From Fibrobacter succinogenes subsp. succinogenes S85 (GTDB lineage: Bacteria; Fibrobacterota; Fibrobacteria; Fibrobacterales; Fibrobacteraceae), in assembly GCF_000146505.1 (NCBI RefSeq), contig NC_017448.1:2700001-2732000 (forward strand): a stretch of DNA of 32,000 bases, in the 5' to 3' direction. This document shows positions 5,873-20,789 of this stretch, piece after piece. Both the position numbers and the translations under genes were made by a program. A model generated the notes under the pieces. It was not told the origin of the DNA and made no database searches. It was given only the letters and a program-made list of their open reading frames with translations. The stretch's first letter is position 1. Every line of letters starts with the position of its first letter.

Positions 5873-6099
5873 GGGGAAGGGCCCTGTTTGATGAGTCGGT
5901 TATCTCGGATTTTCTCGTGAATTGGGCGTGGCGAGCGTTTTTTTAGCGATTTTATGTTAATTTGCGAAAACATACACTAAAAAAATGTATATATAAAACG
6001 TGCAATTAATATTAGGCACAAAAGCCAAAAAATGTTTTTTAATTAATACCTTGGATGCTTGACTTCTGAGGTGTGTTTTTGTTTAAAATTGGAAAAATT

Positions 6100-9000
6100 A
6101 TGGACGAAATTCTTTCTCTTGCTTATTATATCACATACGCGACTCGTAGGGCTGACGCTCCTATTGGTTTCAACTTTCTTCGTCAAGCAGAAAACTTTAT
6201 TGCTGCGTTGATGCCTTTTGAAGCTGCTACTCAAGATTACTATGATGACGATCTTGTTGCTTTAATTAATATCCATATCACTAGAGATGAGTTCTTAGAT
6301 GTACTAGCGCAAATAGAGCGGGGGGTTCGGCCGCGAAATGTCAGTTTGCCTGTAAGAGGAGTTGTCCCTAATCCTCAGGAACGTCCGAGTTTTTTTGAAA
6401 ACTATATCACTAATATCCATGATGATAGAACAAAATCGTCGGTTTGCCAGACCATCAATCGCTTGAATGAGGTTATGCAGGGCATTTCCTATAATGGTGT
6501 TGATGAAAATGGAAATCCGGTTGTCGAGGCGAATAATCCGAAGTCTAGACCGAATGGATTGGTTGTTGGTCGAGTCCAGTCGGGTAAGACGCGCAACTAT
6601 ATCGGCTTGATGTTAAAGGCTTTTGATGAAGGTTGGAATACAATCTTTGTTTTAACGAGTAATAGCACTGAACTTCGTACACAGACTGCTAGTCGAATTG
6701 CCAAAGATTTAGCCAAAGCCGGTATAACGGATAGGTTTGCTCGTCAGGTAGATGTAAGTATTAGAAATGGAAATCTTCCTGCGAATGACACAAATGGTTT
6801 CCTCTATTGGGGCGTGGTAATTAAAGAAGTTAATAATATTGGAAATTTCAAGCAATGGTTGAGTGATAGTCGTGCTGTTCATCAGAATATGCGCGTTATG
6901 ATTATCGATGATGAAGCTGATAATGCAAGTCCGAATTCTAATAATGATCCCAATTTGTTAGAGGACGCAGAAATTGATTTGGAACTTGAGAAGTTGACTT
7001 GTCTTGCTGAAGATGAACAATTTGCAGGACTAGTAGATGTTGTGGAATGGTTCAAAAATCTTAGAACATTGAATGCTGAACATGCTGCATTAATTTTTGC
7101 TAAAAATATTTTAGCAGAAGGTGCAAGATCGGCTACTGTTCAACGCGATGCGCTTCTTCGAAATCAAAATTGGTGCAACCTGACTGGTGCGACGGAAGAA
7201 ATTGTTCGTGAAATTTATAGATACTATAATGTTGGCAATAGAAAGCCAAATGTAAAAGAATTTATTTTATTGGTGAAGTCAATTCTGTCTATCGCAACTG
7301 ACAGAAGCCAAATCAATGGTGGCATCATTGAAATCGTGGATAAGACTCGGGATGCTGTCGAATATACATATAATTTTAAACATTGTGCTTATATCGCTTA
7401 TACAGCAACGCCTTATGCTTGTATCTTGAATGAAAATCCGAACGCAACTTCCATTTATCCTGATTTTATTCAATCACTAGACAAATCAAATCAGTATTTT
7501 GGCCTTGCTGAAATTTTTGGACGGTATGATCCTGATAATCTAAATTCGAGAATGCCTATTTTGCAAACTTTTTCGGATGAGGAAGCTGTTCTCGTTGATA
7601 AAGTTAAAAGTGGAGCTAGAATATCGGACGATTTGTCGGTTGAAGGAGAAGAATGGGTTGGCTTGAAAGACGCCATCAGCTATTTCGTTTGCTCTGCCGC
7701 AGCTCGCCGTGTACGCCGATTGAGAGATGTTCCTGTTATAGAGAATAATGGAAATGAAGAATTTTATTCGTCTATTCGTGACGATTTATGGACATCAATG
7801 TTGGTAAACATCCATCATACGATAGGAGTCATGGATGGAGCTAAAGATGCTATAAAAACATATTTGCGAAATTTCTTACGGAGGGACGATTTTATAGATG
7901 TTTGTCATGAAGCTTGGGTGCGTATGACAGGCGAATTTACCGAAGAATATTTTAGACAACTTTTCCCAAATTATGGAGAGTTTGAGCCCTATCCAAGTTG
8001 GGAAGCTCTTTTGCCTCATTTAGAGTATTTTAGAGGCGTGGATAAAATCCAGGTTGTGGTATTGAATACTGGCGCTAGCGGTAGAGATGATTCGAATCGT
8101 TACGCAAATAATGGTGATGGTGTTCAACGTTATACGGATGATCGAGCCTGGATTGTTTGTGGTGGTAACAAAATTTCTCGTGGTTTAACGCTTCCGGGGC
8201 TTACTGTTAGCTATTTTGACCGATTGAACAAAACGATTCCCGTGGATACAATGACCCAAATGGGGCGTTGGTTCGGTTATCGTCGTGGTTATGAAATGTT
8301 ACCACGAATTTGGATGAAGCCTGCAAATTTACAGGAATTGAAGAAAATCGCCCAGGTTGAAGAATTGCTTCATCCAAGCATTAGAGAAAATTTTGATAAT
8401 CATTATTCTCCGGCAGATCCGAACCATTTCCAAACGGTTTATTCATTTGGTAGAAAGCTCTCTGGAAGAGAACAAAGTCGCAGACGGATGGAGGCTCCGA
8501 TGGGGGCTTTAATCCATTCTAAAACACTGCCTATTCAGAGAGACTCTGTTGTGGCTGCTTATAATATTGTTAATCGCTTTGCTACGGAACATCAAGAGAA
8601 AGTTCGGAATTCAGAAGAATATCAATATAGTAGAATCCCGTTATGGGAGAATGTTCCTGTAGAAGATGTTGTTAGGACATTGACCGAATTACGAGATTTC
8701 TATCCTGAAAAAACGAAACGCGTTTTGAATGCCTTGATTAGGGATGTTAACAGTAGCTTAGTAAATGAATGGGATGTCGTTTTAGGTACACCTGCTATTG
8801 GCGTGCTGGATAGCGTGCCGGAAAATAGGCCGTATTTCCGGATAGGGAATTTTATTCTTTCGGGTGCTAATCCGAGGATATTCTATAAGGATGGCGTTTT
8901 GGAAGCGGAATCTAGACTTCACATTTCGTTCTATGCGAATTTCCCGAAAACAGTTTTGGAAGAAACAACTCAATATTATAAGGATTATTTTAGTCATCAT

Positions 9001-9747
9001 CCAGAAGATTTGCCTAAAGATAAGAAATTGCCTGAAGGTTTCCGTAACAGATCTGATTCCCGTTATATGGCAACAGCGTTTGCTGGTTTGAGAAGTCCTT
9101 CTAATAAGAAGCCTGTATTGCAATTCTATGTGATTAATCCGCAAGGGAATGTAGAAGGACTTGAGGCGGGAATACCTTTAATCGCTATATCTGTTTATTG
9201 GCCGGAACACAATCCGGATTACTTCGTTGCAAATGAAGTTGGTTATGAACCGCCTCCGCGTTCTATTGACAAAACTCATGTCTTTGTGAAAGTCAATAGA
9301 ATTCTTCAGGAAGCCAACTTCCCGATGACTACGGCGGCTTTAAGGGCGAAGTTCCTCAAATATTATCCGCTTCGCAAATTCCCAAATGCAGAAACGGTTT
9401 ATAATGCCAATGTTCGCCGTGGTAACGAGAATGGGTATGGTTATTACCAGTTCCCAGGTAAAGATGCTTATGCTTCTATAAATTGGGCGGAAATGGAAAA
9501 TGCGGAAATAGAAATAGGTCGTGCTTTCTTGAAAGAAATCGCAATTATTTTACGAGGCACCGTGAATCGGTTGTCTTTTGATGATTTGAAAAATGCTGTT
9601 CTTGCTGCGGATGCTAGATGGAATGAAAATTTGATGCCTTCAACTCCGGCAGAATTACAAAGGCTTATAGAGAATCATCCTGAATATAATCTGAGGTGCG
9701 AACCTGGACGTCCGTATCGTTTCTGGTTTAATTGTGAGGGTGTGTAA
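6100..9747 (+). CDS. Z1-domain P-loop ATPase (large, about 1215 aa)
   Basis: Motifs: GRVQSGKTRNYIGL Walker A (nt 6568-6591), MIIDDEADNAS Walker B, YTATPYA, ISRGLTLPGLTVSYF and QMGRWFGYRRGY...RIWM, the hallmark Z1-domain string. The ATG at 6100 is preferred over the upstream GTG at 6073. Confidence 0.75.
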   Translation: MDEILSLAYYITYATRRADAPIGFNFLRQAENFIAALMPFEAATQDYYDDDLVALINIHITRDEFLDVLAQIERGVRPRNVSLPVRGVVPNPQERPSFFENYITNIHDDRTKSSVCQTINRLNEVMQGISYNGVDENGNPVVEANNPKSRPNGLVVGRVQSGKTRNYIGLMLKAFDEGWNTIFVLTSNSTELRTQTASRIAKDLAKAGITDRFARQVDVSIRNGNLPANDTNGFLYWGVVIKEVNNIGNFKQWLSDSRAVHQNMRVMIIDDEADNASPNSNNDPNLLEDAEIDLELEKLTCLAEDEQFAGLVDVVEWFKNLRTLNAEHAALIFAKNILAEGARSATVQRDALLRNQNWCNLTGATEEIVREIYRYYNVGNRKPNVKEFILLVKSILSIATDRSQINGGIIEIVDKTRDAVEYTYNFKHCAYIAYTATPYACILNENPNATSIYPDFIQSLDKSNQYFGLAEIFGRYDPDNLNSRMPILQTFSDEEAVLVDKVKSGARISDDLSVEGEEWVGLKDAISYFVCSAAARRVRRLRDVPVIENNGNEEFYSSIRDDLWTSMLVNIHHTIGVMDGAKDAIKTYLRNFLRRDDFIDVCHEAWVRMTGEFTEEYFRQLFPNYGEFEPYPSWEALLPHLEYFRGVDKIQVVVLNTGASGRDDSNRYANNGDGVQRYTDDRAWIVCGGNKISRGLTLPGLTVSYFDRLNKTIPVDTMTQMGRWFGYRRGYEMLPRIWMKPANLQELKKIAQVEELLHPSIRENFDNHYSPADPNHFQTVYSFGRKLSGREQSRRRMEAPMGALIHSKTLPIQRDSVVAAYNIVNRFATEHQEKVRNSEEYQYSRIPLWENVPVEDVVRTLTELRDFYPEKTKRVLNALIRDVNSSLVNEWDVVLGTPAIGVLDSVPENRPYFRIGNFILSGANPRIFYKDGVLEAESRLHISFYANFPKTVLEETTQYYKDYFSHHPEDLPKDKKLPEGFRNRSDSRYMATAFAGLRSPSNKKPVLQFYVINPQGNVEGLEAGIPLIAISVYWPEHNPDYFVANEVGYEPPPRSIDKTHVFVKVNRILQEANFPMTTAALRAKFLKYYPLRKFPNAETVYNANVRRGNENGYGYYQFPGKDAYASINWAEMENAEIEIGRAFLKEIAIILRGTVNRLSFDDLKNAVLAADARWNENLMPSTPAELQRLIENHPEYNLRCEPGRPYRFWFNCEGV

Positions 9748-9749
9748 CT

Positions 9750-10736
9750 ATGCCTGATGCTTTAGATGCAAACTTAAAAGAGGTGCTGACTGATTTGATG
9801 ATGCAAATTGGTCAGACTCGACAGAAGATTGTTCGCCAGTTTGCTGGTGACTTCTACTTCTTTTCAAATTTCACTCAGATGGGCGTTGCAATCGCTTTCC
9901 GTAATGATGCGAATGCGTTTGTTCGTCAACTGAAGACGTTTTCTTTAGCACGTAGTGCTGAACTGCAAACGACGAATGGCTTGTTGCCTGGTCCGTTTTT
10001 GACATTGTCTATTAATCCGCAGGAATTTGACTTTGAAAACTCACTTTCTGTTGGAATTTTCGTTGATTTGATGATTCGCTTTGTTGATGCTGAATATAGG
10101 GAAAAGTTTACAACGGATCCCGATATTTGTTATACGATTCTAGCGGACTTGCTTGGCAATACGTTTAAAGAAACTTCGCCGTATGCAGTACTTGCTGAAG
10201 TACAAATGCTGCGGATGCTTAATAGTCAGTGGTTGATTCATTCTGTTCGGGAAAATTGGCCTGGGCCGGATGGAAATGTCCATGATTTTGAACTTGAAAA
10301 CTGCAGCGTAGAGGTTAAGTCGACTTTGCATGCAAAGGATCGACCAGAACTTGTTATTTCATCTCAACACCAGCTGCAAAGGACTGGGGATAAGCCTCTT
10401 TATGTAGCCTTGTTCCAGTATGAAAATACGGGCGATTTATCTATTGGTGAAGAAGTCGCTAGATACGAATCTCCCAAGATAGAATACAATGCTCTTGTTA
10501 ATAAATTGAAGGACAAGGGAATTGTTGAGGGGTCGCTTTCGTGGCAAAAACAGTATCATTGGATTGAAAATCCTCGTTTTTATGAAGTGACGGATGATTT
10601 CCCAAGAATTACTGAGGACATGTTCGTAAACAATCAGTTCCCGCAAGATATAACCAAGATTATTTATCATGTGGATTTGAGAAACCAACGTGCTTACACG
10701 TTTGAAGAATTTCTAAAAAGAATTTCAAATAATTAG
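9750..10736 (+). CDS. PD-(D/E)xK nuclease-motif protein (DUF4420-like partner of Z1 proteins)
   Basis: A 328-aa protein with VHDFELENCSVEVKST, which gives a D...E.K core. The start codon is 2 nt after the Z1 stop, suggesting translational coupling. Confidence 0.55.
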   Translation: MPDALDANLKEVLTDLMMQIGQTRQKIVRQFAGDFYFFSNFTQMGVAIAFRNDANAFVRQLKTFSLARSAELQTTNGLLPGPFLTLSINPQEFDFENSLSVGIFVDLMIRFVDAEYREKFTTDPDICYTILADLLGNTFKETSPYAVLAEVQMLRMLNSQWLIHSVRENWPGPDGNVHDFELENCSVEVKSTLHAKDRPELVISSQHQLQRTGDKPLYVALFQYENTGDLSIGEEVARYESPKIEYNALVNKLKDKGIVEGSLSWQKQYHWIENPRFYEVTDDFPRITEDMFVNNQFPQDITKIIYHVDLRNQRAYTFEEFLKRISNN

Positions 10737-10744
10737 GAGAAAAT

Positions 10745-12391
10745 ATGGCTGGTCAAAAATTGGAACTTACATGGGTTGGCAAAAATAAACCGGTAAAGCT
10801 GGAACCGCGTTTGTTGCTGGAAGTGCCTGAAAAGTCCTATTGTGCGAAAACAAAGCGCGAAGGCGATATTTTTGATAATATGCTTATTCATGGTGATAAC
10901 TTGCTTGCATTAAAAGCTTTGGAAAGTAAGTTCACCGGACAAGTGAAGTGTGTGTATATTGATCCTCCGTATAATACGGGGTCTGCTTTTAAACATTATG
11001 ATGATTGTTTGGAACATTCTACTTGGCTGAATTTGATGCGAGCTCGTTTAGAGTCTATTTTTAAATTGTTAAAAAAGGAAGGTGTCTTATTTATTTCCAT
11101 AGATGATGACGAATGTCATTATTTGAAAATATTATGCGATGAAGTGTTTGGCCGAGAAAATTTTTGTGGTTCATTTGTTTGGGAAAGAAAAAAGAAACCG
11201 TCATTTCTGAGTAATATGGGCGTTGTGACGGAATATATTCTTGCTTATGCTAAAGAGAAGAAAAGTAGTCCTCCATTTATTTATGGAACAACAACTAAAG
11301 GGAAAAAATATCCTATTAACAATGCAGGAAATACTTTAGCTACTTTGACATTCCCTGCTGGAAGTGTGTCTTTCAGAATGGTTGATCAGGTTGTAGTTGC
11401 TCAGGATATGTCTGGTGGAAATATCGTTACACGTTTGCTTAATGATGTGATTATCAAAAATGGTGTAAATGAAAATCAATTCTCTCTTGAGGGTGAATGG
11501 CGTTATTCTCAAGACACAATAAATGAGATTATTGATTCTGGTGAGCAAATTGTTATTAGTAAAGTTCCTTTCCGCCCTAATCATGTGAAAGATGGTGGAA
11601 AACCTAAAAAAATGAAAAACTTGTTAAGTGTTGCCCACTATAGTATGGCGACTAATGAAGATGCTACTGCGGAAAGCGAAGCGCTTTTTGGCAATATGGA
11701 CGCTTTTGACAACCCAAAGCCAGAAATGTTGATTTCAACATTAATTGATGCTGTGACAGAAAAGGGCGATTTGGTTCTTGATTCTTTCCTTGGGTCTGGA
11801 ACGACTGCTGCTGTAGCTCATAAAATGGGACGACGATGGATTGGTGTTGAATTGGGTGATCACTGTTATTCACATTGTATTTCTAGATTGCAAAAAGTGA
11901 TTGATGGCAATGATATGGGAGGTGTAAGTAAATCTTATGATTGGCAAGGTGGCGGCGGCTTCCGTTTTTATGAATTGGCTCCATCCCTCATCAAAAAAGA
12001 TGAGTATGGAATAGAGGTCATTGATAGGGAACATTTTGATGGTGCGCGCCTTATTGAAGCTGTCTGCAAAATTATGGGTTTTGAATATGCTCCGAGTCAA
12101 GATGAATACTTTATCCATGGACAGAGTACTGAAAATGCGTTTATTTATGTGACGACGAACTTTATGACTACAGAGCATATTCGTTCCATTAGTCAAAAAT
12201 TGGGTGATCGTCATTTAAGCATTCTCTGCAAAGCATTTGATGCCGTTCCTGCAGATTGTGAAAATATCACCATTTCTAAGATTCCCAAAGAGATTCTTGA
12301 CAAGTGCGAATGGGGCCATGATGATTATAGCCTTAATGTTAAAAATCTGCCCATGTCAGAAACTGAATCGGAACCTTCTTTGAATTTGTAG
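10745..12391 (+). CDS. mod: Site-specific DNA methyltransferase, beta-class N6A/N4C (Type III Mod-like)
   Basis: Motif IV VYIDPPYNTG lies near the N-terminus and motif I VLDSFLGSGTTAAVA near the C-terminus, with a variable region between them. SD aggag is upstream. Confidence 0.85.
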   Translation: MAGQKLELTWVGKNKPVKLEPRLLLEVPEKSYCAKTKREGDIFDNMLIHGDNLLALKALESKFTGQVKCVYIDPPYNTGSAFKHYDDCLEHSTWLNLMRARLESIFKLLKKEGVLFISIDDDECHYLKILCDEVFGRENFCGSFVWERKKKPSFLSNMGVVTEYILAYAKEKKSSPPFIYGTTTKGKKYPINNAGNTLATLTFPAGSVSFRMVDQVVVAQDMSGGNIVTRLLNDVIIKNGVNENQFSLEGEWRYSQDTINEIIDSGEQIVISKVPFRPNHVKDGGKPKKMKNLLSVAHYSMATNEDATAESEALFGNMDAFDNPKPEMLISTLIDAVTEKGDLVLDSFLGSGTTAAVAHKMGRRWIGVELGDHCYSHCISRLQKVIDGNDMGGVSKSYDWQGGGGFRFYELAPSLIKKDEYGIEVIDREHFDGARLIEAVCKIMGFEYAPSQDEYFIHGQSTENAFIYVTTNFMTTEHIRSISQKLGDRHLSILCKAFDAVPADCENITISKIPKEILDKCEWGHDDYSLNVKNLPMSETESEPSLNL

Positions 12392-12402
12392 GAGCATTTA
12401 AA

Positions 12403-15084
12403 ATGAAGCTTGTTGATAGTATTTCTAAGTGCTTGAGCCTTCGCAAACCGCAGAAGGTTGCTCTCGAACACCTTTCCGCTGTTGTAGAAAAATTTGCAGA
12501 AGCCAATCTTTTGAAAAAAGATGCCGATATTGCGGAACAATTGAAAATCGTTCAACAATATCAACAGTCTGCTAATTTGACTCCAATGTCAAATTTTGAT
12601 CATAGTTTTAGTTCAATGACATTTGACATGGCTACAGGCGTGGGTAAAACACGTTTGATGGGGGCTTTCATTGCCTACTTGTATAAAAAGTTTGGTTTAA
12701 AGAATTATTTGATTGTTGCTCCAAATACCACGATTTACGAAAAACTTATTGCTGATTTTACTTCTGGTTTTGATAATAAAAAATATGTTTTTCGAGGCCT
12801 TGATCCTTTGGGATGGCCGTCGCATCGAATTATTACAGGGGACAACTATAATAGCGTTGCTGCGGGGACTGATGTTCTTTATGATGTAACTCCTATTACA
12901 GTAAATATTTTCAATATAGCCAAGTTGACGGAAAAGCAAAGTGCAAAAGAAAATCATTTAGATAAATCGGATGCCGCTGCTGCTCTTCCCCGAGTTCGTC
13001 GAATTTCAGAATTTTTGGGTGATAGTTACTTCAATATTCTTTTGAAAAAAGAAGATTTGGTAGTGATTATGGATGAAGCCCATCATTATAGGGCGAAAGC
13101 CGGATATAGCGCCATAGATGAACTTCATCCTGTTCTCGGTTTGGAACTGACGGCTACTCCAACTAATCAAACTAGGAATATCCTATATTCTTATGATTTA
13201 CCGCAGGCAATGCATGATGGCTTTGTCAAGGTTCCTGCTGTTGCTTGTCGCCGCAACTTCAATCCTGCTAATTTCACTCCAGAGGAATTGGAACACTTAA
13301 AACTGAAAGAAGCTGATTTAATTCATTCAAATAAAAAGGTAGCCTTGAAGGATTATGAGTTTAATCATGGCTTGAAACAAAATGTTAAACCATTTATATT
13401 CGTAATCTCTAAAGATATCGCCCATGCTAAGCAGATTGAGGAATACACTCAGTCGAAAGATTTTTGTAATGGCAAATATAAAGATAAGGTTCTGCGCATA
13501 GATAGCTCTTCAAGTGATGAAGAAATAAAAAAACTGTTGATGCTTGAACATCCCTTGAATCCGTATGAAATTGTGATTCATTGCAACAAGCTGGGTGAAG
13601 GATGGGATGTTACGAATCTTTATACGATTGTACCTTTGCGTGCTGCGAATGAGCTGCATTTGATTATGCAGTCCATTGGACGTGGGTTACGATTGCCGTA
13701 TGGCAAGCGTGTTGGGGATAAGGATGTCGACCAGGTAGTCGTTATCTCGCATGATAACTTCGATAAAGTTATTGAAGAAGCGAAGAAGAAAATGGGCGTT
13801 TTGGAAACGATTGATCTTGGTCCTGGAACTCCAGAAGAGGCTGGCAGTGGTGTTCCGCGTAAAGTCCAGATAACGATGAAACCCAAAACAGAAATGCTAG
13901 TTGCTCCGGTTTCGGCTGGTGCTCCTGCTACGGAAGATTCTGCTCCGTCAATAAACGTTCCTCAACCGAGTTCTGTAAATACGCCTGAAGTTGCGGCAGG
14001 TAAGATTCTTACCCAAATGGACGAGGATGCTGGCAAAGGCTTAAAGCCAAACCTGAATAATCCTGTATACGTGCAAACGACAAAAGATTCTTTGGCTGAG
14101 CAAGGTGTATCTGAAAATGTTGCGGAACAAGGCGTTGAAATTGTAAAACATGTGACGATTGATATTCCTCGAATCACATTGACTCCAAAATTTGCTGTAA
14201 CATGCAATCTTGATGAATTTACTTTTGATGGTTCTGAAATAAAGAAGCTTCAGCCTATAGACAATCAATTGTTGATTCAAACAGTATTGGCTCAGAAGCC
14301 TTCTCGTTATATACTGAAGGTTGTGGAAAATGGGGACTCCTTCGATGCAAATGATTTTGTAACCCATTTGATGCAGGAATTGTCTCATGTGGATGGTATT
14401 GATTATGATAGTAGTTCGAAAGTTGTCTATGATGTTGCAAATCAGGTCAAGGATATTCTTTTGCAATGCGATAGAGCTTGGAATATTGTAGCTAATTATT
14501 TCAATCGCATATGTGAAATGGTAAAGAGGCAACTTTTGGCTCATCGAACTGTTGGTAATTTGGAGTATGAAACTCGTGTAGAACCGGGATATGTCAAATT
14601 GCAAATTATTAGCGGAACCATCAATGAAGGTGAAAAAATCCGTGATTTCAGGGACGATAAATTTGTAAAAAGTCAAATTAAGTCTATGGCATTTAATGGA
14701 TTTGAAAAATGCCTTTATGATGTCCAAAAATTTGATAGCGATCCGGAACGCAAGTTGATGGTTGGATTGGAATCTGATGAGACGTTGCAGAAGTGGTTCC
14801 GTGCAACACAAACTACATTCCGTATTCCGTATGGTGCTGATGGGTCTTGCTACACTCCAGATATCATTATGGAAACCGCAAATGAAAAAATCATGTGTGA
14901 AGTCAAGGCCGCTAATAAAATGAAGGATGAAGAGGTCCTTCAAAAAGCGGCTGCCGGAAAAATCTGGTGTGAACGTGCCTCAACGGAAGATTCTAAGCCG
15001 TGGAAGTACGTCTTGATTTCTGAAGAAGAAATTAACCAAAGATTGTCACTAGATATAAGTGGTTTGCTTGCGTTGGGGACGTAA
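12403..15084 (+). CDS. res: Type III restriction Res-like SF2 helicase-nuclease
   Basis: Motifs: ATGVGKT (I), MDEAHHY (II), TATP (III), QSIGRGLRL (VI) and a C-terminal PD...E.K motif (YTPDIIMETANEKIMCEVKA). The start is 11 nt after the mod stop. Confidence 0.85.
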   Translation: MKLVDSISKCLSLRKPQKVALEHLSAVVEKFAEANLLKKDADIAEQLKIVQQYQQSANLTPMSNFDHSFSSMTFDMATGVGKTRLMGAFIAYLYKKFGLKNYLIVAPNTTIYEKLIADFTSGFDNKKYVFRGLDPLGWPSHRIITGDNYNSVAAGTDVLYDVTPITVNIFNIAKLTEKQSAKENHLDKSDAAAALPRVRRISEFLGDSYFNILLKKEDLVVIMDEAHHYRAKAGYSAIDELHPVLGLELTATPTNQTRNILYSYDLPQAMHDGFVKVPAVACRRNFNPANFTPEELEHLKLKEADLIHSNKKVALKDYEFNHGLKQNVKPFIFVISKDIAHAKQIEEYTQSKDFCNGKYKDKVLRIDSSSSDEEIKKLLMLEHPLNPYEIVIHCNKLGEGWDVTNLYTIVPLRAANELHLIMQSIGRGLRLPYGKRVGDKDVDQVVVISHDNFDKVIEEAKKKMGVLETIDLGPGTPEEAGSGVPRKVQITMKPKTEMLVAPVSAGAPATEDSAPSINVPQPSSVNTPEVAAGKILTQMDEDAGKGLKPNLNNPVYVQTTKDSLAEQGVSENVAEQGVEIVKHVTIDIPRITLTPKFAVTCNLDEFTFDGSEIKKLQPIDNQLLIQTVLAQKPSRYILKVVENGDSFDANDFVTHLMQELSHVDGIDYDSSSKVVYDVANQVKDILLQCDRAWNIVANYFNRICEMVKRQLLAHRTVGNLEYETRVEPGYVKLQIISGTINEGEKIRDFRDDKFVKSQIKSMAFNGFEKCLYDVQKFDSDPERKLMVGLESDETLQKWFRATQTTFRIPYGADGSCYTPDIIMETANEKIMCEVKAANKMKDEEVLQKAAAGKIWCERASTEDSKPWKYVLISEEEINQRLSLDISGLLALGT

Positions 15085-15283: not shown

Positions 15284-17521
15284 ATGAGTGAACAAAATCT
15301 GAATGAGTTAAGTGAAATTGGTAAGTGCCGTTTGCATTTTCCTTTTTTGCACCCGAAGAAAAGGGAAGAAATGGTTTCGCTGTATTGTTCAGAACGCAGC
15401 GAACTTAGCAATGATGTCGACGCGGATATTAAGAAACGCGTTTTGGAGGCATACAAGGGCTTTAAAATAGAAGGCTCTATTCATAGCGTAGAAGTTGGCC
15501 CTGTTGTTATGCGCGTAAATTTTGTTCCTGCCCCAGATGTGACGAATGAACGTGTTGCGAATAAGGCGAGTGATTTGGCTCGATTATTGAAGGTGAAAAG
15601 CGTTTGCGTCACTTCCAATAACTCCGTAGGGGCGATGGCGATAGACATCCCATGTAGAACGCGTAAAAATGTGTTGCCTGGAAATTTGTTGGATATTGAT
15701 CATTCCGATAAAGTTTTACCCATAGATCTAGGCGTAGATGTTGTTGGAATGGGTATTTGCGTTGATTTATGCAAGGCTCCGCATATTCTTGTTGCTGGTA
15801 CCACTGGTAGCGGCAAAAGTGCTTTTATTAACGCAATTATTGCAAGTCTTTTGCGTAATGTAAGTGAAACCGATTATAGTTTGATGCTGATAGACCCCAA
15901 GCGTGTTGAATTGGCGTGTTTTAAGGATTTGCCAAATGTGATAAATAAGAAAGTTCTGGATAAGTCGGAGGATATTCTTCAGGGCTTAGATTGGCTCCAT
16001 CGCGAAATGGAACGTCGATATGAACTGCTTGCTAATGTTGGTGTAAAAGATATTAAAAAATTTAATGAAAAGGTTATTTCTGGAGATAAATCATTCTATA
16101 GTAAAGTTGGCGTCTCCGATTTGCATAGAATGCGGTATATAGTGTGTATTATTGATGAATTTGCAGACCTTGTACTTAATAATGAAAAAGAGCAAAAAAG
16201 AGAATTTGAAAAGCATGTCCAAAGTTTGGCGCAAAAGGGGCGTGCTGCAGGCATTCATTTAGTTCTTGCTACGCAAACTCCGAGAAGTGATGTAATTTCG
16301 GGTGTTATAAAAGCTAATGTTCCGATGAAAGTTGCTTTTCGTGTATCTAACGTTGTTGATAGTAGGGTTGTTTTAGATGAAGCCGGTGCAGAAGGTTTGC
16401 TTGGGTCGGGTGATATGCTGGTTGACTATAGTGGTTGGGGCGGTTTAAAGCGCTTGCATGGAGTGTGGTATGACGATGAGACTGTAATTGAAAAGATGGT
16501 TGCCTTTATAAAATCAAATTCTATCGATATGCAACATGAAATGGTCTCTTTTGATACAGGTACATGTCGCCAGTCGATTACTGAAATTCCAGAAGGAGTT
16601 TTTACAGCATCTTTTGATGGTGTTATGGAATTGGCTGAATATATTGATGAAAAATTGTCTGCTGGAGGGCAGTTAGTTGAACTAGCTCGCAAAAAAATGA
16701 GTAATGTCGCTTGTCCTGTGACTCGATTTAAATCGGGCTGGGATGAGTCTGCTTTTTTTGAATTGGAACGAAATCAAGTCGTTTGTTTGACAAACGGGAA
16801 AGATTGTGTTGTAAAAAGGAAATGGAAGTCTGAAAAGGACTACGATGTATATGAGGTTGTTTACGAAAATAGGCGTTATGCCTTAAGATGGTTTGCTGGC
16901 AAACCATCAAAGAATCAAATGGAAAAATTGCAGTATTTGTTGGATGTCCCCTTGTCAGAAAATTTTATTCGTCCTCTGGCGATTTCCTATTCTATGGCTA
17001 ATGGATATGGCTATTTAATATTTAAGAATTTTGTTGATGCTAGTAAATTACAAGAATTTGATTCTTTTGACATTCCGTCATTTCTAAGTATGTGTTTGCA
17101 AATAGCATCGTCTTTTGAAGAATTGCATAAGAATGGACTTTGCTTTTCTAATTATGGAGAATCTGATGTTTTGGTTGATTCAAATGATGGACGCGTTTTG
17201 ATTGATGTGTGTGAAAATTTGACAAGAATGGAGAAAACAGATGTCTCTGTCGCTGTTCAGGGACGGTATCTTGCTCCAGAACTTTTGGAAGGTTCTCATG
17301 TTCCTGACTGCTATACAGACTATTATCTGTTGGCTTGTATTTTGTCTAGCTTAAAAAGTAACTTGGATGATGTTGATGAAGTCATTAATTTCCCAGTGGA
17401 TTTGGATAATGTTTTTTCAAAATCGCTTAGTTCTGAAATGAAAATGAATCGTGAATTAAGAATGAAGGATAAAGAATGGATTGATTTATTCAATTACATG
17501 CGCGATAATTATCTGGTTTAA
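15284..17521 (+). CDS. Soluble FtsK/SpoIIIE-like ATPase fused to a C-terminal Hanks-kinase-like (probably degenerate) domain
   Basis: FtsK motifs: VEVGPVVMRVNFVPAPDV, AGTTGSGKS (aa 171-179, nt 15794-15820), IVCIIDEFADL (aa 286-296), LVLATQTPR and GSGDML. The C-terminal part (about aa 500-700, nt about 16781-17383) has RRYALRWF, LHKNGLCFSNYGESDVLV, LIDVCENL and RYLAPELLEG. I see no N-terminal TM helices. Confidence 0.7.
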   Translation: MSEQNLNELSEIGKCRLHFPFLHPKKREEMVSLYCSERSELSNDVDADIKKRVLEAYKGFKIEGSIHSVEVGPVVMRVNFVPAPDVTNERVANKASDLARLLKVKSVCVTSNNSVGAMAIDIPCRTRKNVLPGNLLDIDHSDKVLPIDLGVDVVGMGICVDLCKAPHILVAGTTGSGKSAFINAIIASLLRNVSETDYSLMLIDPKRVELACFKDLPNVINKKVLDKSEDILQGLDWLHREMERRYELLANVGVKDIKKFNEKVISGDKSFYSKVGVSDLHRMRYIVCIIDEFADLVLNNEKEQKREFEKHVQSLAQKGRAAGIHLVLATQTPRSDVISGVIKANVPMKVAFRVSNVVDSRVVLDEAGAEGLLGSGDMLVDYSGWGGLKRLHGVWYDDETVIEKMVAFIKSNSIDMQHEMVSFDTGTCRQSITEIPEGVFTASFDGVMELAEYIDEKLSAGGQLVELARKKMSNVACPVTRFKSGWDESAFFELERNQVVCLTNGKDCVVKRKWKSEKDYDVYEVVYENRRYALRWFAGKPSKNQMEKLQYLLDVPLSENFIRPLAISYSMANGYGYLIFKNFVDASKLQEFDSFDIPSFLSMCLQIASSFEELHKNGLCFSNYGESDVLVDSNDGRVLIDVCENLTRMEKTDVSVAVQGRYLAPELLEGSHVPDCYTDYYLLACILSSLKSNLDDVDEVINFPVDLDNVFSKSLSSEMKMNRELRMKDKEWIDLFNYMRDNYLV

Positions 17522-17587: not shown

Positions 17588-19036
17588 ATGACTGAAATTT
17601 ACGGTATCGACTTGGGTACGACATATTCGTGTATTGCGGAAATTAATTCGATAACGAAATTGCCTTCGGTTATCAAGAATCAAGACGATTTGGCGACAAC
17701 TCCATCAATTGTATTCTTTGATGAAAATGATGCGCCACTAGTTGGCGGTGAGGCAAAACGCTATATGGCTTCGGATCCAAGCCGTGCGGTTGCGTTCATC
17801 AAACGTGAAATGTCGAATCCCACGTTTCGGATGGAAATAGGTTGCAACGAAATCACACCCGTGAAAATATCCGCAATGATATTGAAAAAGCTTGTGGATG
17901 ATGCGAACATCAACCGAAAATTCAGGGGAAAGCCTCCCATAAAGGATGTTGTGATAACTGTTCCTGCTTATTTTGGCAACAATGAAAGAGAGTTAACTCG
18001 CCAAGCCGGGATTATCGCTGGATTAAATGTTTTGGGTTTGCTAAACGAGCCTACAGCGGCTGCTCTGTATTATGGCTCTAGAGGTAATGTTTTCAATGAA
18101 AAAACGTTCATGGTCTATGATTTAGGCGGCGGAACGTTTGATGTCAGCATCATGCGGATGCATAACAATGTGCTTGAAACATTATCTACAGACGGCGACC
18201 ATCATCTTGGCGGTGTTGATTGGGATGCAGCCATTGTTGATTACGCGTTGAAAGTTGTTTGCGGCGAAAGCGGTGTGACGTATGAAGATATAAAACATAC
18301 GCGTGATGGCGGCGACATGATTATGAATGCAGAAAAATGTAAAAAAATGTTGTCTGAAAGTGATCGTGCTCCGCTTCGATTTAGGTACAAAGGCCGCATG
18401 TATATGCACGAAATGAGACGATCTACATTTGAGAATTTGACAGCTGGTTTGTTGAAAAAAACGATTGATTCCATTCGCAATGCGATAAAGATTTCCAAGG
18501 ACCCCAATGCGAAAATTGACATGATTTTCTTAGTTGGCGGTTCTTCCTATATGCCTATGGTCAAGGAACGTCTTTATATGGAATTTCCTAGAGTGAGCAT
18601 TTTCTTGGAACAGTTTGAACCAGATTTGGCTGTAGCCAAAGGTGCGGCTATCCAAGCATTCAATATCGCGAATCCGCAAAGCGCCCCAGCTGCTGGTGTG
18701 AAAATAGGCACGGATTTGTCTAGCCGCTCGTATGGTGCGGGCTGTATGCGAACAGGAACTGATGAACACATAATTGATAATCTTATTTTGCGTACAGATC
18801 CGATGGTTTATGAAGGAACTTGTCGCCATTATACAAGAAATGACAATCAAACCTCAACGTCGGTTTCTATTTACGAAAATAAAACAGTTGAGAAAGAACT
18901 TTCTGTCAATGATGGTGTCCTGGTTCAAAGACAAAGAATAGAATGGGGATATCCGGTTCCTAAGGGAACGCCGGTAGATTATACTATAAGGAGGGGGTTA
19001 GATGGTATAATCCACATTGAAGCAATGTGTGAATGA
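17588..19036 (+). CDS. Hsp70/DnaK-family ATPase, short form (482 aa; possible 30-codon extension to 19129 past an in-frame TGA)
   Basis: Motifs: GIDLGTTYSC, VITVPAYFGNNER, LLNEPTAAALYYG, YDLGGGTFDVSI, LVGGSSYMPMVK and PDLAVAKGAAIQA. Only about 100 aa follow the nucleotide-binding domain. Confidence 0.85.
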   Translation: MTEIYGIDLGTTYSCIAEINSITKLPSVIKNQDDLATTPSIVFFDENDAPLVGGEAKRYMASDPSRAVAFIKREMSNPTFRMEIGCNEITPVKISAMILKKLVDDANINRKFRGKPPIKDVVITVPAYFGNNERELTRQAGIIAGLNVLGLLNEPTAAALYYGSRGNVFNEKTFMVYDLGGGTFDVSIMRMHNNVLETLSTDGDHHLGGVDWDAAIVDYALKVVCGESGVTYEDIKHTRDGGDMIMNAEKCKKMLSESDRAPLRFRYKGRMYMHEMRRSTFENLTAGLLKKTIDSIRNAIKISKDPNAKIDMIFLVGGSSYMPMVKERLYMEFPRVSIFLEQFEPDLAVAKGAAIQAFNIANPQSAPAAGVKIGTDLSSRSYGAGCMRTGTDEHIIDNLILRTDPMVYEGTCRHYTRNDNQTSTSVSIYENKTVEKELSVNDGVLVQRQRIEWGYPVPKGTPVDYTIRRGLDGIIHIEAMCE

Positions 19037-19147: not shown

Positions 19148-19867
19148 ATGTTTGATGGTAACGCTAATAACAGTTTTCAACAGAGAAATGATATTTCCGA
19201 AATAAAGGAACAGCTGCAACGCCTTTCTGCAGCGCATGAGCAAACGATTCATAAACAAAATGAATTGATTGGCAGGTTGCATGAATGCATTGTCAAGTAT
19301 GGTAATGACGTTCTTTTCAAGTCGCAAAAAGATCTTATTGAAGAGATGATTCAGCTGGCAGATCAAGTACATTACTGTATCCAGGATCAGAAAAAAGAGC
19401 GAAATTATCAGTTGCTGTTAGATTCAATGATTCAGATAAGCCAATGGATTGATGCTAGCTTGAGCCGTGTCAAGGTGCGTCGATTTGATTCCGGTGAAAA
19501 ATGTTTTCGTGAATTTAATGCCAAAAGGCAAGAAGTCGTTAATACTGTTGAAACGACTAATTCGTCTGAAGATGGATGCTATAAATCGGAGCTGCCTGGA
19601 TATGAGTGGACCATCCCATTTGTAGGGTCTGTTGAATCAATGCTGTCCGAAGGTGTTCCACAAAAATTTGAGTTTGTATTCAGACCTGAACAAGTCGTTT
19701 CGCTCAAGTATAGGCCAGTTAATGCAGAATCGCAAACGCAAAAATTGGTTGATGTTGTTTCCGAGAGCAAGCCTTCGGTATTTTCTAGCGTGTCGTCTGA
19801 CAAGTTGGAATGTAAACGCAGTTTTAGGCAATGGCTTTTGTCACTCTTATTTAAAAAAATTTTTTAA
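19148..19867 (+). CDS. GrpE-like nucleotide-exchange-factor paralogue 1
   Basis: A coiled-coil N-terminal half, then NDVLFKSQKDLIEEMIQLADQV...LLDSMIQISQWIDASL...KRQEVV...LPGYEWT...FRPEQVVSLKY. This follows the GrpE pattern (A.KF...LL.V.D.L...G...L...FDP..H.A...GY...RPA.V.V). It has a 55-aa C-terminal tail ending WLLSLLFKKIF. Confidence 0.5.
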   Translation: MFDGNANNSFQQRNDISEIKEQLQRLSAAHEQTIHKQNELIGRLHECIVKYGNDVLFKSQKDLIEEMIQLADQVHYCIQDQKKERNYQLLLDSMIQISQWIDASLSRVKVRRFDSGEKCFREFNAKRQEVVNTVETTNSSEDGCYKSELPGYEWTIPFVGSVESMLSEGVPQKFEFVFRPEQVVSLKYRPVNAESQTQKLVDVVSESKPSVFSSVSSDKLECKRSFRQWLLSLLFKKIF

Positions 19868-19880
19868 GAAGAATTAGAAT

Positions 19881-20789
19881 ATGAAGGATACAACTGAAAA
19901 ACATGTTGAAAGTAACGTGGCGGAATCAGCGGCTGCGCCATCTATAGATGATAATCCGGCACAGATATCTGCAGAGAATGTTTTGGAACCTGAGACTGAA
20001 ACAAAGGAGATTCCTGCAACAGAGATGCCTGATGTCGTAGTGGAACTCCGTAGCGAATTTGAACAAATAAAACGTTCATTTGCAAAACAAAATGAAGAGA
20101 ATGCGGACGCTTTGAAGATGTTGAATGAAAATGCCCAAAATTTCTATAAAAAAATGGAGCCGTATCTTCAAAGGCTTGATAAAAATGTTTTTGTTCTCGG
20201 AAAAAAAAGTTCTGATGTAGAAAATGCTTTAAAAGGATTGCATGGTGAATGTCTGGAAAAACGTGAACAGTTTATAAAAGAACAGTCTGATACTATTGCA
20301 AAACAGCAGGACTCGTTAAAAGAGCTTTCTGGAGCAATCAATAAGCTTCAAGATTGCATGACTCGCTATCAGAACGATGTTTTGTTCAAAGCGCAAAAGG
20401 AAATTTTGGAAGATTTAATTCAACTTTCGGATCAAGTACGTTGCAATATTTTGGATCAAGAACAAAATCAGAATTACGAATCACTGCTAGATTCTATGAA
20501 GCAAATTGGCAAATGGATAGACGCAAGCCTAGAGCGTTCAAAAATGCATAAGTTCGAAGATTGCTGCCATGGAAATACCACCATCGACAAGAAAAGGCAA
20601 GAAGTCGTGGATATCGAGGAAACGGAAAGCGCCGAAAAAGATGGATACTTTGTCACTCGCCAACCTGGATATTTGTGGACGATTCCTTTGGTGGGAAGCG
20701 TTGATACTATGCTTTCAGGGAATGCCCCGCAGACGTTTGAATTTGTATTTAGGCCTGAACAGGTGGTAAAACTTAAGTACAAAAAGTGA
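19881..20789 (+). CDS. GrpE-like nucleotide-exchange-factor paralogue 2 (longer acidic/coiled-coil N-terminus)
   Basis: The C-terminal roughly 150 aa are clearly paralogous to the preceding gene (NDVLFKAQKEILEDLIQLSDQV, LLDSMKQIGKWIDASL, KRQEVV, QPGYLWTIPLVGSV, FEFVFRPEQVVKLKY). Confidence 0.5.
   Translation: MKDTTEKHVESNVAESAAAPSIDDNPAQISAENVLEPETETKEIPATEMPDVVVELRSEFEQIKRSFAKQNEENADALKMLNENAQNFYKKMEPYLQRLDKNVFVLGKKSSDVENALKGLHGECLEKREQFIKEQSDTIAKQQDSLKELSGAINKLQDCMTRYQNDVLFKAQKEILEDLIQLSDQVRCNILDQEQNQNYESLLDSMKQIGKWIDASLERSKMHKFEDCCHGNTTIDKKRQEVVDIEETESAEKDGYFVTRQPGYLWTIPLVGSVDTMLSGNAPQTFEFVFRPEQVVKLKYKK

Follow-up and report, generated by a model that had tools for sequence, protein, structure and literature searches.

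Architecture of the fusion gene

The analysed window, a stretch of 32,000 nucleotides of Fibrobacter succinogenes subsp. succinogenes S85 (contig NC_017448.1, positions 2,700,001 to 2,732,000, forward strand), contains a 745-aa gene, P0001 (window positions 15284..17521, + strand), in which an FtsK-type motor is fused to a C-terminal domain with a protein-kinase fold and substituted catalytic residues. The gene is an open frame without stops, with Pfam matches to FtsK_alpha and FtsK_SpoIIIE, and is the first of four co-directional genes on the + strand (15284-17521, 745 aa; 17588-19036, Hsp70 family; 19148-19867; and 19881-20789), which follow a Type III Mod/Res pair after a gap of 200 nt. PADLOC matched the motor of P0001 to SspH, mad8 and HerA, and its C-terminus to the PD-T4-6 kinase.

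The motor half consists of an FtsK alpha domain (aa 48-123; 15425..15652, +; PF17854, E = 6.4e-11, scoring 42.8 bits with the cut-off at 22.9) and an FtsK/SpoIIIE beta, or motor, domain (aa ~140-400; 15701..16483, +; PF01580, E = 3.1e-47, scoring 161.3 bits with the cut-off at 24; the match spans positions 13-219 of the 221 in the profile). The Walker A motif GTTGSGKS (aa 172-179; 15797..15820, +) and the Walker B motif IIDE (aa 289-292; 16148..16159, +) were read from the translation, and both are invariant in four orthologues. A linker follows (aa 401-500; 16484..16783, +), modelled as helical at low confidence (pLDDT, or predicted local distance difference test, 41-64), standing in place of the FtsK gamma domain and giving no Pfam match for aa 395-505. 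The remaining residues (aa 501-745; 16784..17518, +) form the pseudokinase domain, delimited from an AlphaFold2 (AF2) model, structure matches and a family profile; aa 745, at the end of the kinase C-lobe, is the last residue, and no C-terminal Zn-ribbon or OB extension follows.

Kinase fold of the C-terminal domain

A reading of this DNA from its letters and translations alone, called here the sequence-only reading, had proposed a kinase-like domain fused to an FtsK-like motor, and this proposal was borne out by the AF2 model, by structure comparison and by the family profile. The AF2 model, made from a 62-row alignment, had a pLDDT of 83.7, exceeding 90 over most of residues 500-745. VIA-align comparison of model residues 72-316 with BRAF, ABL, EGFR and PknB gave Z scores of 18-19 over 220-231 residues at a root-mean-square deviation of ~3 Å; 1000 of 1000 re-aligned chains scored Z ≥8, and all chains listed were protein kinases. 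Foldseek returned at least 500 matches at E ≤0.001, of which the 50 listed were kinases or pseudokinases, including ROP2, ROP5B and VRK3. The structure prediction that the sequence-only reading had suggested, compared with solved kinases including PknB, gave a protein-kinase fold.

Sequence searches also pointed to kinases. The sole Pfam match within aa 480-745 was Pkinase (PF00069, E = 1.1e-4, 22.1 bits, under the 31.7-bit cut-off), and a search of PDB sequences with the C-terminal domain returned only kinases, all at E = 0.025 or weaker. With phmmer, 345 matches were obtained among 1.8 billion representatives, nearly all of them ~430-aa proteins with an N-terminal kinase domain (best non-orthologous E = 2.7e-19). 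A hidden Markov model (HMM) of 51 active members of this family scored the C-terminal domain at 118 bits, and the family profile in turn matched PKC, GRK and RSK structures in the PDB at E ~1e-18. It is beyond reasonable doubt that the C-terminal domain has a protein-kinase fold. About 60 family-specific residues after helix F (profile positions 205-264) are deleted in it, with the last helices kept.

Substitution of the catalytic residues

Family motif columns were fixed by aligning the family profile to PKC-theta, which identified LGxGGQGxVY as the Gly-rich loop, YALKWY as the segment with the VAIK Lys, YQDLNDGN as the catalytic loop (HRDLKxxN), ICDNDN as the DFG region, and YMAPE as the APE motif. 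Residues were counted in 57 non-fusion family members and in the fusion clade of six sequences.

At the Gly-rich loop, where the family has G-x-G-G-Q-G, the window protein has K-S-E-K-D-Y (aa 515-520; 16826..16843, +); the four glycines are present in 44/57, 54/57, 39/57 and 52/57 family members, and the loop is glycine-free throughout the fusion clade (K/R-S/A-E-K-x-x). The VAIK Lys of strand beta3, retained in 53 of the 57, is replaced by R535 (AGA; 16886..16888, +), within YALR at aa 532-535, and Arg occupies this position in 6/6 fusion sequences. The catalytic loop reads F-S-N-Y-G-E-S-D (aa 621-628; 17144..17167, +) when aligned to HCDLKPEN of DYRK2, placing N623 (AAT; 17150-17152) at the catalytic Asp (Asp in 52/57 of the family) and D628 at the catalytic-loop Asn (Asn in 42/57; Asp in 6/6 fusion sequences). 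N623 is confined to the window and a metagenome copy 98% identical to it, contig L032, and Asp is present in the relatives on contigs L001, L002, L003 and L036. A sequencing error behind N623 was rejected, as the independent contig L032 has the same codon state.

The segment D641-V642-C643-E644-N645 (17204..17218, +) corresponds to family C-D-N-D-N in the DFG region, where the first Asp of DxDN is conserved in 51/57 members and the second in 54/57. An ungapped alignment to the family HMM sets V642 (Ala in relatives) on the invariant metal-binding Asp and E644 on the second Asp, leaving D641 one residue upstream of the invariant Asp column, at the end of strand beta8 as assigned by DSSP; the pairwise alignment to DYRK2 instead sets E644 on the DFG Asp. 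The APE motif (A-P-E, aa 664-666, within YLAPELLEG at aa 662-670; 17273..17281, +) is intact, as in 56/57 family members, and invariant in the fusion clade, and the helix-F Asp, D679, is retained together with the hydrophobic core.

All four motifs named in the sequence-only reading (YALR, FSNYGESD, DVC at aa 641-643, and YLAPELLEG) are present in the translation, and its assignments of Lys to Arg at beta3, Asp to Asn at the catalytic base and an intact APE agree with HMMER alignments to DYRK2 and PKC-theta and with the family alignment. The register in which DFG becomes DVC is probably one residue out, with V642 on the Asp in the family HMM. As to whether the substitutions are conserved in homologues, this holds in the fusion clade for Lys to Arg, for loss of the Gly-rich loop and for Asn to Asp, but not for Asp to Asn, which is confined to the allele group of the window. 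The sequence-only reading had not mentioned that the Gly-rich loop is lost, that D628 stands at the catalytic-loop Asn, or that residues after helix F are deleted.

Lys to Arg at beta3 and Asp to Asn at the catalytic base are the classic kinase-dead substitutions. Because both are present and the Gly-rich loop is lost as well, conventional phosphotransfer by the domain is, judged from its sequence, very unlikely.

A soluble motor with the pseudokinase at the gamma position

The motor (aa 49-407) is 42% identical to the 1036-aa FtsK of the same genome, and its identity to genuine FtsK proteins ranges overall from 38 to 47% (38-44% for chromosomal FtsK/SpoIIIE). No PF13491 (N-terminal 4TM) or PF09397 (Ftsk_gamma) match was found for P0001 in the Pfam scan, whereas the canonical FtsK relatives listed carry both, with PF09397 following the motor; nor was a membrane domain detected in the Pfam scan or on reading the translation. 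The pseudokinase thus occupies the C-terminal position where FtsK carries its gamma domain. The gamma domain of FtsK is a DNA-reading, XerD-activating module, and the position of the pseudokinase may have functional meaning.

The nearest non-orthologous motors (44-47% identity) belong to stand-alone FtsK-like proteins of 495-563 aa without transmembrane or gamma domains. Three of these (P0171, P0173 and P0174, on contigs L028, L030 and L031, at ~9001-10490) lie in long runs of small unannotated co-directional open reading frames (ORFs), and one of the contigs measures 431 kb; these contigs look like phage or mobile elements. Neither Hsp70 nor a kinase was found near P0171, P0173 or P0174, and their contexts were uninformative on function.

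Origin of the domain and selection on it

Sequence comparison groups the domain with the ~430-aa kinases found in TerY-P (kinase/VWA/PP2C) triads, of which it is a fast-diverged paralogue. A maximum-likelihood tree gives the fusion clade a support of 100 and a very long stem of 1.93 changes per column, and places it inside a starred set (support 97) holding kinases of Hsp70-linked operons; it is sister to P0006, a protein of another lineage described below, with a Shimodaira-Hasegawa-like approximate likelihood ratio (SH-aLRT) of 87 that is subject to a long-branch caveat. The fusion architecture is rare, with only four clusters at 90% identity among 5.8 billion proteins, and occurs in 1/296 species genomes of the phylum, namely the genome of the window.

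Pairwise ratios of nonsynonymous to synonymous divergence (dN/dS) were 0.14-0.31 for the pseudokinase and 0.09-0.12 for the motor, so that the pseudokinase domain is under purifying selection and less constrained than the motor. In comparisons of the window with its triad-linked relatives, dS was 1.3-3.0, and saturated, in the pseudokinase part (16784-17518), versus ~0.6 in the motor part (15401-16483); among the triad-linked relatives themselves, the two parts agree. Since the excess is seen in the pseudokinase part only, it suggests that the C-terminal domain of the window is a recombined or older allele, a pattern that would be expected of a specificity or recognition module.

Hsp70 and GrpE-like genes

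The gene 66 nt downstream of P0001 encodes an Hsp70-family ATPase of 482 aa (17588..19036, +; PF00012, E = 1e-84), 83% identical to the 513-aa Hsp70 of contig L001. It ends at an in-frame TGA (19034-19036), beyond which the frame runs for 30 more codons to 19129, matching the C-terminus of the 513-aa orthologues. Four near-copies, including those on L033, L034 and L035 (99% identical), have CGA (Arg) at this codon. The simpler reading is that the TGA is a strain-specific nonsense change removing 30 residues; use of TGA as an amino-acid codon was rejected, the near-copies carrying CGA. On L032 (846-2397), Hsp70 is present as two ORFs (229 + 270 aa), which is either another disruption or an assembly error.

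The two genes that follow are GrpE-like paralogues of 239 aa (19148..19867, +; sub-threshold Pfam GrpE match, E = 0.0044; 84% identical to the L001 gene that holds the corresponding place in its operon) and 302 aa (19881..20789, +; sub-threshold Pfam GrpE match, E = 0.00078; 63% identical to the L001 gene). The GrpE-like gene of contig L007 likewise matched below threshold (E = 3.9e-5). A search of PDB sequences with the profile of the GrpE-like family returned no GrpE, only coiled-coil noise, and the AF2 model of the 239-aa protein (pLDDT 47) was unusable.

Operons of relatives

On metagenomic contigs, the full operon comprises an ankyrin-repeat protein, the FtsK-pseudokinase fusion, a 431-aa Pkinase, VWA, PP2C, a 513-aa Hsp70 and two GrpE-like genes, with RmuC at the start of the operon in L003-L004. 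In L001 and L002 the gene for the active kinase comes immediately downstream of the pseudokinase gene, and the triad is present in cis in L001, L002 and L036. In L036 (4503-5198), an extra 231-aa VWA-like gene with VDTSSCM, resembling a metal ion-dependent adhesion site (MIDAS) motif, stands between the fusion and the kinase. No PADLOC model names the VWA or PP2C of these operons.

No ankyrin, kinase, VWA or PP2C gene was found in the window operon in the Pfam scan. Because its Hsp70 and its two GrpE-like genes match their L001 counterparts at 83%, 84% and 63% identity, the window operon is regarded as the same system in reduced form, that is, the L001 system minus ankyrin, kinase, VWA and PP2C. 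Contigs L032-L035, from other samples, encode proteins 98-99% identical to those of the window over the covered parts, in the same gene order, and in L032-L034 a PIN gene likewise lies downstream of the four-gene form that lacks the triad. An assembly artefact as the source of this form was rejected, the form recurring in L032-L035 at 98-99% identity. The intergenic DNA between the pseudokinase gene and Hsp70 was aligned to L001 in search of a deletion scar, and was uninformative.

The same genome carries a second locus 2.1 Mb away (C1:~593500-600500; L013 5542-12513, minus strand), with a 447-aa kinase that is 62% identical to the L001 kinase, then VWA, PP2C, a 770-aa ankyrin protein, and RmuC. 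In two congeners, the kinase-VWA-PP2C-ankyrin cassette is present with its four genes 96-99% identical and RmuC 83-98% identical. Both congeners are without a GrpE-like gene, and the cassette of triad and ankyrin gene therefore also occurs alone. RmuC adjoins the ankyrin gene both in the metagenomic operons (L003 1862-3427) and at the triad locus of this genome (L013 5542-6990), on different sides, and in PADLOC the RmuC gene matched the RmuC that partners a DRT system (E = 6e-68); RmuC may be either a part of the system or a marker of an insertion hot spot.

P0006, encoded in a different lineage (L007/L008 10001-21571), is a 736-aa protein without an FtsK domain, with a different N-terminus and a Zn-ribbon-like tail. 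Its kinase-like domain has Phe at the VAIK Lys. The active kinase of the next gene downstream shares 60% identity with this domain, a likeness that points to tandem duplication. The operon continues with kinase, VWA, PP2C, a second VWA, MORN, GrpE-like, Hsp70, Lcl_C-like and Zn-ribbon protein genes. Because an operon of a different lineage shows the same layout, a degenerate kinase paralogue upstream of the triad kinase, together with Hsp70 and a GrpE-like gene, is taken as a recurring design in which the N-terminal module of the first gene varies.

Genomic surroundings

The four genes lie in a low-GC island (~38-41% GC, against ~50% in the flanks) that spans roughly 6 to 21 kb of the window. 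Upstream (6073-15084, +; identified with Pfam and PADLOC) are a Z1/MzaC-like ATPase, a DUF4420/MzaD-like protein and the Type III Mod/Res pair; the first two are packed directly upstream of Mod/Res, as a composite restriction-type operon. A PIN/RelB pair lies downstream of the four-gene set on the opposite strand.

Interpretation

Fold, family alignment and motif counts support the earlier proposal of a pseudokinase or, less likely, an atypical kinase, and the domain is most simply taken as a catalytically dead pseudokinase that, by analogy, would have a regulatory or recognition function. The preferred interpretation, held at a probability of roughly 0.7, is that this kinase-dead domain serves as the regulatory or recognition module of a soluble, gamma-less FtsK motor in an anti-invader system; the adjoining Z1/DUF4420 pair, Type III restriction-modification genes and PIN/RelB pair were counted for the anti-invader part. 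The scaffold or sensor role put forward in the sequence-only reading would fit both the purifying selection and the place of the domain beside an active paralogous kinase in relatives, and is retained as a suggestion. Mechanistically, the pseudokinase may dock to the paralogous active kinase and PP2C, or serve them as a pseudo-substrate, and, alternatively or in addition, a protein derived from an invader could bind to its surface. Remodelling of the assembly would fall to Hsp70 and the GrpE-like proteins, so that a phosphorylation switch and chaperone remodelling might be coupled to an ATP-driven translocase, probably of double-stranded DNA, directed against invaders. In this genome, the distant kinase-VWA-PP2C-ankyrin cassette may act in trans; alternatively, the reduced module may have no need of it. 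A complex prediction with alignments for the L001 kinase domain and the P0003 pseudokinase domain gave no verdict (score 0.00) and was used neither way.

Several points weigh against this interpretation. Some kinases without canonical residues are active (WNK and CASK), and the acidic groups of D641, E644 and D628 near the site might in principle coordinate metal. Taken together, the clade is less degenerate than the window allele, because the triad-linked relatives keep the catalytic Asp. The GrpE assignment, made from sub-threshold sequence matches, is weak, and DNA rather than protein is put forward as the probable motor substrate from similarity to FtsK. The gene set has no known defence phenotype, and PADLOC holds no model for it as a system. 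The local copy may also be partly disabled, since Hsp70 has a premature stop and the triad is absent in cis.

The retained APE motif, helix-F Asp D679 and whole bilobal fold, the purifying selection on the domain, the cluster of three acidic residues round the former active site, the catalytic Asp kept by relatives and the existence of active kinases without canonical residues would all be accommodated by an atypical active kinase or a nucleotide-dependent switch, using R535 in place of Lys and D628, D641 and E644 for metal, with the motor, Hsp70 or an invader protein as target. This is considered improbable: all five catalytic elements, conserved in 42-54 of the 57 family members, are changed together in the window allele, with two standard kinase-dead mutations among them and charged residues without any Gly in the Gly-rich loop, and an active paralogue next door, as in the relatives, is the usual setting of a pseudokinase. 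Slightly more improbable is that the domain is a decaying remnant in a system under loss in this strain, its substitutions being without functional meaning. The missing ankyrin, kinase, VWA and PP2C genes in cis, the strain-specific nonsense codon in Hsp70, the split Hsp70 of L032 and the pseudokinase being the fastest-evolving part of the protein would all be expected under decay, but six independent sequences have an intact ORF, dN/dS is well under 1 at 0.14-0.31, and the four-gene form without the triad recurs at 98-99% identity in several metagenomes. Moreover, the Lys to Arg change, the lost Gly-rich loop and the Asn to Asp change are common to all members, including those in complete operons, and therefore predate any decay.

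A protein-translocating motor would follow if the gene encoded a type VII-like secretion or translocation ATPase, with the pseudokinase, fused in cis, in the EssB/YukC role of a hub that recruits substrates. The secretion system of type VIIb (T7SSb) pairs an FtsK/SpoIIIE ATPase with a pseudokinase (PMC9600267), and TerY-P triads have been reported beside WXG100/FtsK modules (PMC4978471; PMC11090510). Against this stand the absence of a membrane domain (Pfam scan and translation) and of any WXG100 Pfam match among the called operon genes, a single ATPase domain instead of the tandem array of EssC/EccC, a motor whose nearest relatives are genuine FtsK (38-47%) and the short FtsK-like proteins found on contigs resembling phage or mobile elements, and a pseudokinase that derives from TerY-P kinases, which together make a type VII-like role highly improbable.

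A more far-reaching interpretation is offered tentatively, as doubtful though less so than any of these rivals. It would have the four genes (fusion, Hsp70 and two GrpE-like genes), with or without the TerY-P triad and ankyrin protein, constitute an undescribed anti-invader system in which the fast-evolving pseudokinase is a sensor that licenses a gamma-less FtsK pump. The pseudokinase would either recognise a phage protein by binding it or itself be read by the kinase and phosphatase of the triad, and the pump, with the help of Hsp70 remodelling, would seize or expel invading DNA. If true, this would be the first case in which a sensor with a kinase fold is coupled directly to a DNA translocase.

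Pseudokinases are few in bacteria and for the most part unstudied, and the one in the window has a clear origin, as a duplicate of a TerY-P kinase, and a covalent FtsK partner. It also varies naturally, since some forms keep the catalytic Asp and others do not, and some have the kinase/phosphatase/VWA triad in cis while others lack it there. These features make it testable how the phosphorylation triads found in defence islands are linked to an effector. The locus also defines a rare multi-gene set of ankyrin protein, FtsK-pseudokinase fusion, TerY-P, Hsp70 and GrpE-like proteins.

Comparison with known systems

TerY-P, as cited in PMC11090510, consists of a Ser/Thr kinase, a TerY-like VWA protein and PP2C (Anantharaman et al. 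2012) and has anti-phage activity (Gao et al. 2020); such triads are reported both as stand-alone anti-phage systems and as accessories of larger defence operons (PMC11090510; PMC4978471), some of which also hold FtsK/EssC-like ATPases and Hsp70 homologues (PMC11090510). The window domain is a sequence relative of TerY-P kinases and, in relatives, is encoded directly upstream of such a kinase with VWA and PP2C, but differs from them in its substituted catalytic residues, its fusion to FtsK, the absence of a Zn-ribbon/OB tail and the deletion of ~60 residues after helix F; unlike a TerY-P locus, the window operon is without the triad in cis. Type II/III-A superoperons of CoCoNuT systems are alike in combining TerY-P with an Hsp70-like CnuD and optional FtsK/EssC-like ATPases in predicted defence operons (PMC11090510). 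Here, by contrast, Hsp70 has a gene to itself, accompanied by GrpE-like partners, the pseudokinase is fused to an FtsK ATPase of a single domain, and no Pfam match to McrB/McrC GTPase, HEPN or helicase components was found in the window, L001 or L002 operons.

T7SSb has in EssB/YukC a pseudokinase that serves as an interaction hub and binds the hexameric FtsK-family ATPase EssC/YukB but not ATP (PMC9600267), and the partnering of a pseudokinase with an FtsK-family ATPase is the feature held in common. There, however, the two are separate membrane proteins joined via FHA domains, with tandem ATPase domains and WXG100/LXG export, and the EssB/YukC pseudokinase is followed by a transmembrane helix and an extracellular domain (PMC9600267), whereas P0001 ends at the kinase C-lobe and, as a single soluble protein, combines just one ATPase domain with a pseudokinase that has another origin. 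The called genes of these operons gave no Pfam match to FHA or WXG100, and no EssB/YukC chain was among the 50 rows listed by Foldseek or VIA-align, an absence from the list that does not exclude likeness.

DndF can carry tandem inactive and active kinase domains, and DndH of the same system holds a HerA/FtsK ATPase (PMC10853773), so that DndFGH resembles the present case in having an inactive/active kinase pair and a HerA/FtsK-class translocase in a defence system; unlike here, the kinases are on DndF, off the ATPase subunit, and Hsp70, VWA and PP2C are absent. Chromosomal FtsK/SpoIIIE share the alpha and beta motor domains and the Walker A and B motifs at 38-44% identity, but the window protein lacks their 4TM domain, long linker and gamma domain (KOPS/XerD), with the pseudokinase at the C-terminus.

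The sequence-only reading knew of no described fusion of an FtsK motor to a kinase fold, and this statement holds: neither such a fusion nor this gene set was found in PADLOC or the searchable literature, which gave only the in-trans pairs of T7SSb and the tandem kinases of DndF. The components and themes have precedents, in a pseudokinase that partners an FtsK-class ATPase, in pairs of an inactive and an active kinase, and in TerY-P beside Hsp70; the covalent fusion and the gene set would be new.

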